Assembly: GCA_017450465.1 (NCBI GenBank)
Contig: JAFSUW010000036.1
Span: 781 to 32,780 of the forward strand
Length of the DNA stretch: 32,000 nucleotides
Reading direction: 5' to 3'
DNA from: Clostridia bacterium
GTDB taxonomy: Bacteria > Bacillota > Clostridia > TANB77 > RGIG9151
Part shown: piece after piece, positions 3,478-26,679 of the stretch
Layout of the letters: every line of letters begins with the position of its first letter
How positions within the stretch are numbered: the first letter of the stretch is position 1
Program-made: the position numbers and the translations under genes
Notes under the pieces: generated by a model
Told to the model about the DNA's origin: nothing
Seen by the model: the letters and a program-made list of their open reading frames with translations, nothing else
The model's database searches: none

Positions 3478-4359
3478 TTATTCAACAGTTATTAATTCAT
3501 ATTCGCGAGTTCCAAAGCCCAAATCAGCAGCTGCTTCTATTGTATGAACACCATGACGTGAATTTACTCTTTCTAAGAAGTGTTCTTTACCTGGATCATT
3601 TGATGCATTTACTAAATCTATACATGCCTGATCTATTGCAACAGGGTCAAGACTTGCAAGTATTCCGATATCTTTCATACAAGGGTCTTCTGCAACCGCA
3701 CAACAATCACAGTCAACACTCATATTACACATTATATTTATAAATGCCATATTACCATTAAAATGTTTTACAACCGATGACGCAGCATCTGCCATTGATT
3801 CTAAAAATAAGTCCTGTTTAGGTAAATCATTCCACAAATTGTATTGGTCCGTTGTTCTACCAGCTGAATGTATATAACTTTTTCCAGCTGTTGATGCACA
3901 ACCAATAGAAAGTTGTTTTAAAGCTCCTCCAAAGCCACCCATAGGATGCCCCTTAAAGTGTGATAAAACAAGCATTGAATCATATTTCTCAATATTCTTT
4001 CCAAAATAATTTTTCTTAATAACTTTTCCATTTGGAATTTCTACTTCAATATCTTCTTTTTCATCCATAATATCTACATCAAAATATTTTGACCAACCAT
4101 GATTTTCTATCAATTTCTTGTGTTTTTCAGTTGTATTACGTTCTCCTCCATATGCTGTATTACATTCAACTATAGTTCCATTTACATGCTTAACCATTGG
4201 TATCATAAAATCCGGGCGAAGATAATTTTGATTACCTTCTTCACCTGAATGTACCTTTACCGCTACTTTGCCTGGCAATTTTTTATTTAAAACCTCATAC
4301 ATTTTTACTACATTTTCTGGAGTAATTTCTTTACAAAAATACACTTTTGCTTTTTCCAT
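3478..4359 (-). CDS. DUF362 domain protein (Cys-rich, probable Fe-S/metal binding)
   Basis: 293-aa ORF with a strong GAGGAGG SD. The Cys cluster VDCDCCAVAEDPC and the overall composition recall DUF362 proteins. The family call is from memory, not a search. Confidence 0.6.
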   Translation of the reverse strand: MEKAKVYFCKEITPENVVKMYEVLNKKLPGKVAVKVHSGEEGNQNYLRPDFMIPMVKHVNGTIVECNTAYGGERNTTEKHKKLIENHGWSKYFDVDIMDEKEDIEVEIPNGKVIKKNYFGKNIEKYDSMLVLSHFKGHPMGGFGGALKQLSIGCASTAGKSYIHSAGRTTDQYNLWNDLPKQDLFLESMADAASSVVKHFNGNMAFINIMCNMSVDCDCCAVAEDPCMKDIGILASLDPVAIDQACIDLVNASNDPGKEHFLERVNSRHGVHTIEAAADLGFGTREYELITVE

Positions 4360-24221: not shown

Positions 24222-24764
24222 TTAATTTCCTTTCATTTCAACATCCATGCTATTTACAAGCATAATCGAAACATTTCCTCTTGTCATTTTTTCGGATGCC
24301 TCAACCGAAAAGCCTTTATCTAATTTTAAATTTTCTGCCATAGATGTAACATTTGTTGGCCAAACGCCTTCCATATCTTCTTTATAACCTAAAACTCCAA
24401 CTAAAATTGCTGAACATTCTGCATAAGTTACGTTGTTAGAAGGCCTAAATGTAGTATCACCATAGCCACTTATAATGCCTCTTGTAGCCAGTGCCATAAC
24501 ATTTTTGTATGCCCAGTGATTATTTGGCAAATCAGAAAAATCTTCTACCGCAAAACTCTCCTCGTTGTCAATAGAAAGCATTTTGGCTATGAGTGTACAA
24601 AATTCAGCACGAGTAATATCTCGCTCTAAACCCAAAGTACCATCAGGATATCCAGACATAAGTTTCATTGTAACTAATATATTGGCTGCCTCATCTTCTG
24701 TGTAACTAAAAGAAAATGAGAATAATAAACAAAATATAAGCAATATAGAAACGATTTTTTTCAT
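24222..24764 (-). CDS. secreted S-layer homology (SLH) domain protein
   Basis: 180 aa. Signal peptide MKKIVSILLIFCLLFSFSFS. Two SLH-like repeats are present: ITRAEFCTLIAKML and VTYAECSAILVGVLG, together with GYGDTTFRP. GGAGG SD. Confidence 0.75.
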   Translation of the reverse strand: MKKIVSILLIFCLLFSFSFSYTEDEAANILVTMKLMSGYPDGTLGLERDITRAEFCTLIAKMLSIDNEESFAVEDFSDLPNNHWAYKNVMALATRGIISGYGDTTFRPSNNVTYAECSAILVGVLGYKEDMEGVWPTNVTSMAENLKLDKGFSVEASEKMTRGNVSIMLVNSMDVEMKGN

Positions 24765-24784
24765 AAGTATTCCTCCATATTGTT

Positions 24785-24813
24785 ATATTATATTTATCGA
24801 CAAATAAAGTCAA
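24785..24813 (-). promoter_or_regulatory. putative own promoter of the SLH operon
   Basis: The minus strand reads TTGACT-N17-TAATAT (or N15-TATAAT). It lies between the upstream strong terminator and the SLH SD. Confidence 0.5.
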
Positions 24814-24841
24814 TATAATATTTTTTCCTATATTTTTATTT

Positions 24842-24877
24842 AAAAAACGAAGAGAGATAAAGAACTTATCTCTCTTC
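24842..24877 (-). terminator. strong intrinsic terminator closing the riboswitch/ncRNA unit
   Basis: Minus-strand RNA GAAGAGAGAUAA-GUUCU-UUAUCUCUCUUC (12-bp stem) followed by GUUUUUU. Confidence 0.85.
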
Positions 24878-24961
24878 ACTCTTTTTTGGACGGCATTTTC
24901 TTGCCAAGAAATCACTAGACTTCTTACGGTGTTTTTAGTTAGATATATTAATATTAACTAC

Positions 24962-25192
24962 AGGGACTTATAACATCCCTCCTCCCTATTAAATTGTACC
25001 ACGCACCTTGATGTAGTGTCATCTACGGTCAACCCATCGGGACTCGCTAGGGTCTTGCACCAGATACATGATTTATATCCGAAAGAGCCGTATATACAAC
25101 TCCTTTAAGTTTCATTTACAACTTTCTCACCATCCGCCATCTGGGAATTCAAGTAGCCCCCTTCCTCCCTAGACCTCGGCTAGCGTCAAGCT
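24962..25192 (-). ncRNA. unclassified G+C-rich structured RNA downstream of the c-di-GMP-I riboswitch
   Basis: About 47% G+C by hand count in AT-rich surroundings, and G-skewed on the minus strand. It has no ORF longer than 15 codons. The long-range inverted repeat 25171..25187 / 25041..25055 gives 13 bp. An inner helix pairs 25139..25144 with 25060..25065. Local hairpins lie at 25107..25124 and 25084..25103; the second contains G-U pairs only in the minus sense. It sits between two minus-strand terminators. Confidence 0.55.
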
Positions 25193-25231
25193 AAAACAAA
25201 ACTCCGTTTCAGGGTACACCTAAAACGGAGC
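25193..25231 (-). terminator. intrinsic terminator serving as the expression platform of the c-di-GMP-I riboswitch
   Basis: Minus-strand RNA CUCCGUUU-loop(13 nt)-AAACGGAG followed by UUUUGUUUU, about 20 nt after the aptamer. Confidence 0.75.
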
Positions 25232-25247
25232 TAAAATTCAACTCTCA

Positions 25248-25337
25248 GTTTTCGGCAACCCGGCTTCCATAGTCTTACGACGTTAGGTCCGTAGCTTTGC
25301 GTCCCAACCTTTCGATTGGTTTGCCCTTTCGGATTAT
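25248..25337 (-). promoter_or_regulatory. class I c-di-GMP riboswitch aptamer (GEMM-I)
   Basis: The minus-strand RNA reads AAUCCGAAAGGGCAAACCAAUCGAAAGGUUGGGACGCAAAGCUACGGACCUAACGUCGUAAGACUAUGGAAGCCGGGUUGCCGAAAAC. This reproduces the GEMM-I signature as known from Vc2. The matching parts are GGGCAAACC, a GAAA-capped hairpin, GGGACGCAAAGC, a CCUAA/UAUGG tetraloop-receptor-like pair around a GUAA hairpin, and AGCCGGGUUGCCGA. Confidence 0.88.
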
Positions 25338-25343
25338 ATTTTA

Positions 25344-25372
25344 ATTATACACTTTGTTTACATAAATGTCAA
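25344..25372 (-). promoter_or_regulatory. consensus sigma-A-type promoter driving the riboswitch
   Basis: The minus strand reads TTGACA-N17-TATAAT, with both hexamers perfect. The -35 overlaps the NUDIX stop codon. The predicted TSS lies a few nt before the aptamer. Confidence 0.7.
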
Positions 25373-26157: not shown

Positions 26158-26679
26158 TTATTGCATCTGATTTAACATATCACTAAATTCTCCTGAAGCA
26201 ATCATTTCTGTCACAGCCGTCATATACCAAAAGTATATGGCAAACATTATTACTGACAATGCTATTAATGATATTCCAAAGGATCTTCTATCACTATCAT
26301 CATATGTTAAGAAGAATACACCAAAAAAAGCTCCCAAAACTTGTCCGAATACAGGCAACATCGAAATTGCTGTTAAAAATACCTTTACACCATTGGGTAA
26401 TAACTTTGTGTATTCAAGCGTATGTCTTACTTCTGCTTTATATATATAGTCTTTTACTTCTTTCCCTGGCAAGTTAGTATGTTCAATATCATTTTCAATG
26501 TTTGCTGTTTCATCTATTATATTCGCAGCTTGAACATTTTGCTCAGTAGCTGCTACAACAACTGGTTCTTCTTCTGTAACTATTTCAGATTTTTCTGTAA
26601 GTACGGTATTACAAAAAGGACATTTTTGTGTCCTAACATGCAATTTCTCCTTACAGTTTTCGCATATTTTGTATTCCAT
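26158..26679 (-). CDS. zinc-ribbon membrane protein (CxxC...CxxC ribbon, acidic linker, 2-3 TM helices)
   Basis: 173 aa. MEYKICENCKEKLHVRTQKCPFCNT provides the four Cys residues. Hydrophobic helices follow in the C-terminal half. AAAGGAAG SD. Confidence 0.6.
   Translation of the reverse strand: MEYKICENCKEKLHVRTQKCPFCNTVLTEKSEIVTEEEPVVVAATEQNVQAANIIDETANIENDIEHTNLPGKEVKDYIYKAEVRHTLEYTKLLPNGVKVFLTAISMLPVFGQVLGAFFGVFFLTYDDSDRRSFGISLIALSVIMFAIYFWYMTAVTEMIASGEFSDMLNQMQ

Follow-up and report, generated by a model that had tools for sequence, protein, structure and literature searches.

On the minus strand of the 32,000-nucleotide (nt) stretch analyzed here (hereafter the window; Clostridia bacterium, GenBank assembly GCA_017450465.1, contig JAFSUW010000036.1), the region between the genes for FabI and a zinc-ribbon protein on one side and a gene for an SLH-domain protein on the other holds a sigma-70 type promoter, a class I riboswitch for cyclic dimeric guanosine monophosphate (c-di-GMP-I riboswitch) with its intrinsic terminator, a structured noncoding RNA (ncRNA) of ~350 nt, and a second terminator (Table 1). 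A 231-nt segment of this region, at positions 24962-25192, had been flagged in an earlier sequence-only reading as an orphan structured RNA. Our analysis indicates that this segment is the middle of a single minus-strand transcription unit made up of these parts, and we consider this explanation likely as a whole. The riboswitch context, overlooked in the earlier reading, is the most informative fact about the RNA: the c-di-GMP-I aptamer ends 59 nt upstream of the segment and its terminator abuts it, so the RNA is no orphan. Likewise, the limits first drawn cut through a unit whose conserved RNA spans about 25197..24842.

The G+C content of the segment is 46.8%, compared with 24-26% in its AT-rich flanks and 32% in the whole window, and its minus strand contains 70 G versus 38 C residues, in agreement with the values of ~47% and G over C first counted by hand. 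The minus strand folds with a minimum free energy (MFE) of -70.5 kcal/mol (z = -2.05), a value equaled by 2 of 200 shuffles, whereas the fold of the plus strand is not better than shuffles (z = +0.73). Every string and coordinate of that proposal is present in the window, namely, the four helices, both purine tracts, a 15/11-codon mini open reading frame (ORF), and the AUG-UUA-UAA.

Table 1. Features of the putative transcription unit and of the gene that follows it (window positions)
Feature	Position	Strand	Remarks
Sigma-70 type promoter, TTGACA-17 nt-TATAAT	25344..25372	-	12 of 12 consensus matches
c-di-GMP-I (GEMM-I) aptamer	25251..25335	-	Rfam RF01051, 84.6 bits (gathering score 35), model positions 1-87 of 87
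Aptamer 3' strand (GGGUUGCCGAAAAC), candidate antiterminator	25248..25261	-	Alternative partner at 25226..25212 (terminator 5' half and loop)
Intrinsic terminator of riboswitch: 14-bp stem, 5-nt loop, UUUUGUUUU tail	25191..25232 (without tail, 25232..25200)	-	U tract runs into the flagged segment
5' hairpin domain	25128..25190	-	Lineage-specific stem; conserved G-rich tip AAGGGGGCUAC (25163..25153); contains purine tract 1
Four-way-junction core	24951..25115	-	Covariance model R1, 146 bits in the window
P1	25111..25108 with 24959..24956	-	Closing helix of the core
H1	25105..25096 with 25091..25082	-	Fourth hairpin of the sequence-only reading
J2 (CGGAUAUAA)	25081..25073	-	Junction strand of the core
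P3, long helix	25072..25056 with 25015..24998	-	Sequence differs per lineage, complementarity kept
H3, apical hairpin, GAUG loop	25050..25023	-	Part of the core
J3	24997..24981	-	Junction strand of the core
Purine tract 2, Shine-Dalgarno (SD)-like, UAGGGAGGAGGGA	24976..24988	-	5' half single-stranded in J3, 3' half is the 5' strand of P4
P4	24980..24975 with 24967..24962	-	Part of the core
AU-rich single-stranded linker UAAUAUUAAUAUAUCUAACUAAAAACACCG	24926..24955	-	Predicted unpaired
S1, 3' hairpin, AAGAAGUC-UAGU-GAUUUCUU	24925..24906	-	Three pairs are A-U or G-C depending on the lineage
S2, 3' hairpin, GGCA-AGAAAA-UGCC	24905..24892	-	Stem pairs invariant
ncRNA terminator: 12-bp stem, GUUCU loop, U tract	24842..24877 (without tail, 24877..24849)	-	Double changes among lineages in 11 of 12 stem pairs
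Next gene, outside the RNA unit: 180-aa SLH-domain protein	24764..24222 (with promoter-like site, 24222..24813)	-	Promoter-like site TTGACT-17-TAATAT at 24813..24785

The FabI of the window is 100% identical to a protein recorded for an uncultured Clostridia bacterium, and FabI homologues of 68-79% identity were traced to their contigs. This yielded seven lineages of uncultured Clostridia (the window together with L008, L003, L014 [same as L015], L016, L040, and L042), and the whole series of promoter, riboswitch, terminator, RNA, and terminator is present in all of them. The RNA always adjoins the FabI and zinc-ribbon-protein genes, and a covariance model of its core finds one copy per locus. 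Contigs of the same species are identical to the window but for one G-to-A change in purine tract 1; in one of them, L002, obtained from a different sample, UAGGGAGG of the window at 25167 (-) is replaced by UAGGAAGG, the sole difference in ~470 aligned bases.

Searches beyond this group added little. FabI clades at about 60% identity are without the RNA, and a blastn search against plasmids and phages returned nothing. A scan of genome contigs, in a collection that excludes the genome of the window, for the pattern CCCGATGGG-N30-60-AGGGAGGAGGGA gave 16 matches, 15 of them non-Firmicute (mostly metagenome-assembled genomes of other phyla) and one in the Bacillales isolate Marininema halotolerans (L024); scoring of L024 and L018 with the core model gave no match in either. 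Metagenome contigs scanned for TAGGGAGGAGGGAT-N5-8-GTCCCT provided one chance match in coding-looking sequence (L038) and one same-species contig (L039), and none of the 6 matches of a pattern scan of viral contigs scored with the core model. On present data, the RNA family is narrow, comprising seven lineages of one uncultured Clostridia clade.

The upstream part of the unit is well conserved. The promoter hexamers are kept in all six homologous loci that reach the promoter, and RF01051 is matched at the equivalent position in L003, L008, L011, L014, and L016, with the homologous loci scoring 61.6-82 bits. Membership of RF01051 is indicated both by the covariance-model score and by what appears to be an aptamer-coupled expression platform, i.e., a terminator plus an alternative pairing. 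The riboswitch terminator is conserved across lineages, with G-C to A-U changes in its stem, and terminator-like sites numbered 4 versus 0.8 expected. The aptamer 3' strand (CCGGGUUGCCGAAA) pairs with the terminator 5' half and loop at -14 to -16 kcal/mol in all seven lineages, compared with -7 to -9 kcal/mol for shuffled partners, and this antiterminator pairing is the MFE fold of the whole leader in L008 and L003. These features suggest OFF logic. When c-di-GMP is bound, the aptamer would hold its own 3' strand (CCGGGUUGCC), the first terminator would form, and only a short riboswitch transcript would be made; at low c-di-GMP, the aptamer 3' strand would instead pair with the terminator 5' half, the polymerase would read through, and the full RNA would be produced. 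Given its place directly behind a c-di-GMP riboswitch and ahead of a terminator of its own, the RNA is probably made or not made according to the level of the second messenger.

Beyond the riboswitch terminator lies a conserved four-way-junction core. Its covariance model aligns all seven lineages at 128-185 bits, and independent MFE folds recovered H1, P3-H3, and P4 in six of the seven, with P1 in four of those. In the core alignment, which was fitted to the covariance model, 89.8% of the cells are paired, compared with ~40% when the partners are slid by 1-3 columns, and 13 pairs are changed on both sides versus at most 5 in the slid controls; none of 500 shuffles reached these values. Cross-lineage duplexes of P3 point the same way, with matched strands at -12 to -18 kcal/mol and mismatched ones at about -9 kcal/mol. 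In H1, an A-U pair is replaced by G-C in L014, and L042 combines an A-U to G-C with a G-C to C-G replacement. The junction strands, which include UUCGGAUAUAAA and ACAAUUUAAUAGGGAGG, are invariant.

Among the four helices drawn in the sequence-only reading, it is the fourth (GGAGUUG/CGGCUCU, 25103..25084) that survives, with compensatory changes, as H1. The other three (GACGCUAG..GGUCU with AGACC..GUC at long range, CCAGAU with AUCUGG, and AAGUU with AACUU) fail: in a five-lineage alignment they are 61% paired, a figure that includes the 100% pairing of the window itself, and 111 of 500 shuffles are as good. Their 5' strands lie in a non-conserved, variable hairpin stem that is absent from L042, their 3' strands (AGACCCUAGCGAGUC and AUCUGG) are part of the conserved local helices H3 and P3, and the complementarity of helix 1 is -15.2 kcal/mol in the window versus -6 to -10 kcal/mol in the other lineages. 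In addition, the purine tract could pair with CUCUUUC, the pyrimidine strand of H1, and RNAalifold chose that pairing; therefore, two exclusive folds are possible. The hairpin AACUU/GAGUU with which RNAalifold replaces H1 fails in L042.

The core is flanked by a 5' and a 3' domain. The 5' region forms a long hairpin in six lineages, each with a different stem sequence, and this domain is missing in L042. Duplexes of the hairpin arms average -14.5 kcal/mol when matched and -6.4 kcal/mol when taken from mismatched lineages. The tip carries the conserved motif AAGGGGG(C/A)U(A/G)C, and only the AAGGGGG part of purine tract 1 is conserved (AAGGGAGG in L003). Purine tract 2 is identical in six of the seven lineages, L042 having UAGGGAAGGGGG, and half of this conserved SD-like tract (GGGAGGAGGGA) is held in a hairpin. 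L042, which is without the 5' hairpin, carries GAAGGGGGUUAC at the P4 position. As a separate observation, the window tip at 25153-25171 (UAGGGAGGAAGGGGGCUAC) closely resembles the tract at the P4 position of L042 (L042:~4115-4135, UAGGGAAGGGGGUUAC), which may mean that the two purine motifs arose as duplicated modules; a repeat of UUUAAAUAGGGA also lies directly before S1 in L042.

On the 3' side, the linker motif (A)AUAUAUNUAACUAAAA is conserved in six lineages. The 3' domain (S1, S2, and the ncRNA terminator) has 97.7% of its cells paired and 14 double-change pairs in an alignment made by hand with gaps written as N, and none of 500 shuffles reaches these values. The ncRNA terminator has an A tract ahead of its stem and a U tract behind it. 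It therefore reads as a terminator on the plus strand too, where it was also scored as one (24842-24890), and it could end transcription from either direction.

The RNA has no coding capacity that is shared by its homologues. No conserved ORF was found on either strand across the lineages, and neither a transfer RNA nor a transfer-messenger RNA was found. The 15/11-codon ORF behind tract 1 lies in non-conserved sequence, and the AUG behind tract 2, which opens an ORF of 2 to 13 codons, is replaced by AUA in L016 and missing from L042. This disfavors the leader-peptide device offered as one of the original readings: the mini-ORFs lack conservation, and close relatives differ by indels that disrupt the frame. 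A leader peptide or small protein was likewise rejected for the recurrent frame NLIGRRDV, which is broken by a 1-nt indel between L008 and L003. This frame recurs because the underlying nucleotides are invariant.

The same frame, which runs across the conserved tract in several lineages, could be taken to mark the segment as a decayed coding gene. Alternatively, the segment could be a type I antitoxin RNA opposite a small toxin gene, given that C. difficile c-di-GMP-I riboswitches gate type I antitoxins. Both versions are extremely improbable and largely refuted. The starts and stops of NLIGRRDV differ per lineage, and the frame is interrupted by the 1-nt indel between L008 and L003; the shared peptide comes from invariant nucleotides with zero third-position variation, and variation is concentrated in compensatory stem changes. 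The ORFs on the opposite strand (16-48 aa) differ between lineages and are not hydrophobic.

The RNA is also independent of the gene downstream of it. In the window and in L008, this gene encodes the SLH-domain protein, whereas a convergent tRNA-synthetase-family gene follows the RNA in L014 and in L040, and a flagellin gene follows in L042, the most divergent lineage. Since the next gene is convergent in two lineages, the RNA would be a stand-alone ncRNA and not a leader. The flagellin gene (Flagellin_N, E = 6.9e-46; region L042:4335-4640) lies 245 nt beyond the RNA and has its own sigma-D-like promoter (TAAA-N16-GCCGATTA) and a leader with the hairpin AAGUUC-AAGGAU-GAACUU and an AAGGAGG SD sequence, which we take to resemble the CsrA-regulated hag leader of B. 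subtilis. A rearrangement was noted beside the RNA: the block from the SLH gene to GH15 follows it in the window and L008 and is inverted upstream of mecA in L014 and L016 (compared stretches, window 24780-24850, L014:4977-5900, and L016:4999-5745).

These neighborhoods bear on the possibility that the SLH gene has the RNA as its long two-stage 5' leader, with the second terminator as a regulated attenuator. The SLH gene does start on the same strand about 80 nt past the ncRNA terminator in the window and in L008, and surface proteins are often under c-di-GMP riboswitches (PMC11477304). We nonetheless judge such a leader very unlikely. In L014, L016, and L040, either the SLH gene lies ~6 kb off on the other side of the block or convergent genes come after the RNA, and the flagellin gene of L042 has a promoter of its own. 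A breakpoint of the rearrangement separates the ncRNA terminator from the SLH promoter, the inverted SLH block lying several kb off in L014 and L016; the promoter-like site of the SLH gene is found again in L008; and the terminator, with its perfect 12-bp stem and its A and U tracts, showed no alternative pairing.

Comparison with known RNA families gave no match to the RNA. A gathering-threshold scan of the whole window against Rfam 15 matched the riboswitch and no family on the RNA, and at E<=10 the region in the window, L014, and L042 yielded only scattered, inconsistent, sub-threshold matches. Thus, the Rfam search that had been recommended for the segment gave no confident RNA-family match, even at this permissive threshold in three lineages. 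In the E<=10 scans, the RNA matched none of the ribozyme and riboswitch models, among them those for group I and II introns, twister, hammerhead, pistol, and hatchet, and the Intron_gpI model in particular found no match in the window, L014, or L042. A group II intron, suggested by eye from GUGCG (25006..25002) and from a likeness of H1 to the base of domain V, was rejected: GUGCG is not conserved (GUUACG in L008), H1 has AGU in place of the AGC triad and is without the upper stem, and no Rfam intron model matched. Collectively, the suggestion of a new structured ncRNA is borne out by a minus-strand, noncoding RNA outside Rfam that seven lineages share and whose structure covaries among them.

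Invariant junction and internal-loop nucleotides combined with freely varying stems are the usual signature of an aptamer or ribozyme, and the core might accordingly be a second ligand-sensing aptamer or a small ribozyme that forms a tandem two-input device with the c-di-GMP riboswitch, in place of a passive platform, by analogy with the c-di-GMP-II aptamer joined to a group I ribozyme in C. difficile. The SD-like tract and its AUG are half buried in P4, the H1 pyrimidine strand allows two exclusive folds, and a riboswitch-ribozyme tandem has precedent (PMC11477304). Even so, this device seems unlikely. It would have no ORF to regulate: two lineages are without the AUG, the ORFs show no conservation, and in L014 and L040 no same-strand gene comes after the RNA. 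Moreover, the 3' terminator looks unconditional, and no Rfam ribozyme or riboswitch model matches the RNA, even weakly.

We regard the riboswitch, both terminators, the conservation, the covarying structure, the lack of coding capacity, and the independence from the downstream gene as shown. We further propose that the full RNA would act in trans and not on a neighboring gene, although this action and the nature of the partner are more weakly inferred than the OFF logic. Its architecture (an AAGGGGG-tipped hairpin, a four-way junction, a half-buried SD-like tract, an AU-rich linker, and two small hairpins) would be that of a binding platform. More specifically, the invariant junction strands, the two displayed G-rich SD-like motifs, and the conserved AU-rich linker suggest, if weakly, a platform for a protein or a pyrimidine-rich RNA. 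The likeliest use would be to sequester a protein or pyrimidine-rich RNA that recognizes purine-rich, SD-like sequence, by which low c-di-GMP would be coupled to a post-transcriptional response. The RNA may be an SD mimic, decoy, or sponge, as already raised in the sequence-only reading; tract 2 is highly conserved and is predicted to be partly sequestered in a hairpin.

A specific version of this proposal is a CsrA-type sponge that would titrate CsrA at low c-di-GMP and so release flagellin translation. Conserved GGA motifs occur in predicted unpaired or apical places (CGGAUAU in J2 and GGGAGGAGGGAUGU in J3/P4), and in three lineages the tip of the 5' hairpin bears the GGA-containing GGGGGAUGC. 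The RNA of L042 adjoins the flagellin gene, with AAGGAU in the leader hairpin loop and an AAGGAGG, and flagellin is under FliW and CsrA in C. difficile (PMC8523840). We regard the sponge as decidedly unlikely, however. The RNAs contain 5-8 GGA motifs each versus 6.5-8.0 in dinucleotide shuffles, 0.59-0.94 of which reach the observed count, so that the enrichment of a CsrB/RsmZ-type RNA is not seen; CsrB/CsrC-type sponges have been described with 13-22 such motifs (PMC6546359). Half of the main purine tract is base-paired, the known CsrA antagonist of Firmicutes is the protein FliW (bioRxiv 10.1101/2020.07.02.184341), and flagellin is a neighbor in one lineage only.

Several points weigh against the preferred explanation of a c-di-GMP-controlled, trans-acting RNA. 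Transcription, termination, and read-through are all read from the sequence, and the binding partner is hypothetical only. The antiterminator is without a double compensatory change because both of its strands are nearly invariant; its pairing is therefore not proven by covariation, and the switch may have ON logic instead. The covariation figures depend on a core alignment fitted to its model and on a 3' alignment assembled manually, and as the seven recovered lineages all belong to one narrow clade, few independent events underlie these counts. A GGA count at chance level argues against a CsrB-like multi-site sponge, and the contrast between invariant junctions and variable stems would be just as expected of a ribozyme or of a second aptamer that binds a ligand. 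Finally, a same-strand gene does follow the RNA in the window and L008, and some read-through effect there is possible.

The closest known devices are EutX of Enterococcus faecalis and Rli55 of Listeria monocytogenes, sequestering small RNAs led by an adenosylcobalamin (AdoCbl) riboswitch and made at full length only at low ligand (PMC8237595). In these RNAs, the riboswitch is the 5' part of an ORF-free transcript, the ligand causes early termination, and the structured 3' part acts in trans (PMC8237595), all of which we propose for the new RNA. Indeed, the latter appears to form one ORF-free transcript with its riboswitch and to end at its own terminator, and its differing neighbors indicate independence from the downstream gene. 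The ligand here would be c-di-GMP and not AdoCbl, and the payload is unrelated and larger, with a four-way junction and G-rich displays in place of the dual hairpin bound by EutV. By inspection, no EutV/ANTAR dual hairpin was found: the loop of S1 is 4 nt long (UAGU/UCGU), and that of S2 has 4-6 nt and is not conserved in sequence (AGAAAA, CAAAA, GUGAG, GUGAA, or AAUA). The substrate of ANTAR proteins is a pair of hexaloops. Since the S1 and S2 loops are unlike these, the RNA falls outside the EutX/Rli55 family and is a device of the same kind only.

In C. difficile, class I c-di-GMP riboswitches are transcriptional OFF switches, and some of them gate the antitoxin RNAs RCd11 and RCd12 (PMC11477304). 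The likeness to our unit lies in the same riboswitch class and in a terminator that gates a noncoding RNA, not an mRNA. RCd11 and RCd12 serve as the antisense antitoxins in type I toxin-antitoxin pairs of prophages and are also transcribed from a second, stronger promoter, whereas the RNA described here has no toxin ORF opposite (no small hydrophobic one was found on that strand across the lineages) and no prophage context, and it has a complex fold with covariation support. The c-di-GMP-II aptamer-group I ribozyme of C. difficile resembles our unit in that a c-di-GMP aptamer directly precedes a large structured RNA, and a ribosome-binding site is at stake in that system (PMC11477304). Here, the aptamer is of class I and not II, an intrinsic terminator intervenes, no group I intron is matched, and no downstream ORF exists whose ribosome-binding site could be assembled. 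With large ncRNAs that comparative genomics has revealed in Firmicutes, such as raiA/ModT, OLE, and ROOL, the RNA shares a length of several hundred nt, multi-helix junctions with invariant loops, independent transcription, and a function that is not evident from sequence; it differs in having no Rfam sequence or structure match to any of them, in its seven lineages of one clade, and in lying under a riboswitch. Judged by these comparisons, it is a real, well-supported new ncRNA family, absent from Rfam, that would work like EutX/Rli55 and RCd11/RCd12 while belonging to neither and having an unrelated fold.

c-di-GMP riboswitches are normally read as switches of an adjacent protein-coding gene, whereas the regulated product here would be a folded RNA that is both large and conserved. 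Were this RNA to act in trans, an RNA relay would be added to the c-di-GMP signaling of Gram-positive anaerobes, and one riboswitch could reach many targets. The unit would also join EutX/Rli55 as a second case of the rare arrangement in which a riboswitch gates a structured effector RNA. A bolder claim, which we find rather unlikely, is that the core represents a new functional RNA class, either an RNA antagonist of a translational regulator or of the anti-SD sequence, or an aptamer or ribozyme in tandem with the c-di-GMP riboswitch. If it is true, an RNA intermediate would in either version carry the effect of low c-di-GMP to motility or surface genes at the post-transcriptional level, and the antagonist would be the first of its kind in Clostridia under direct second-messenger control.

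Several minor observations concern the unit and its surroundings. At 24993-25022 (-), within the core and a short way upstream of purine tract 2, the sequence resembles a promoter (ATGACA-18-TACAAT, with TG before it); if active, it may start a short RNA near the SD-like tract, or the likeness may merely be a chance feature of conserved RNA sequence. A NUDIX neighbor has almost no relatives on record. The 173-aa protein at 26158-26679 (-), between fabI and the RNA unit, showed weak matches only, to a zinc-ribbon family and to DUF4013, and this zinc-ribbon protein stays beside fabI even in clades without the RNA. The contigs L011 (11346-11418), L012, and L013, which represent one lineage (FabI P0008) in three sequencing runs, all end ~114 nt past the zinc-ribbon-protein gene; in L011, the contig to which the riboswitch scan was applied, the break falls within the c-di-GMP-I aptamer. 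This recurrent assembly break could reflect repeated sequence or strain variation at that place.

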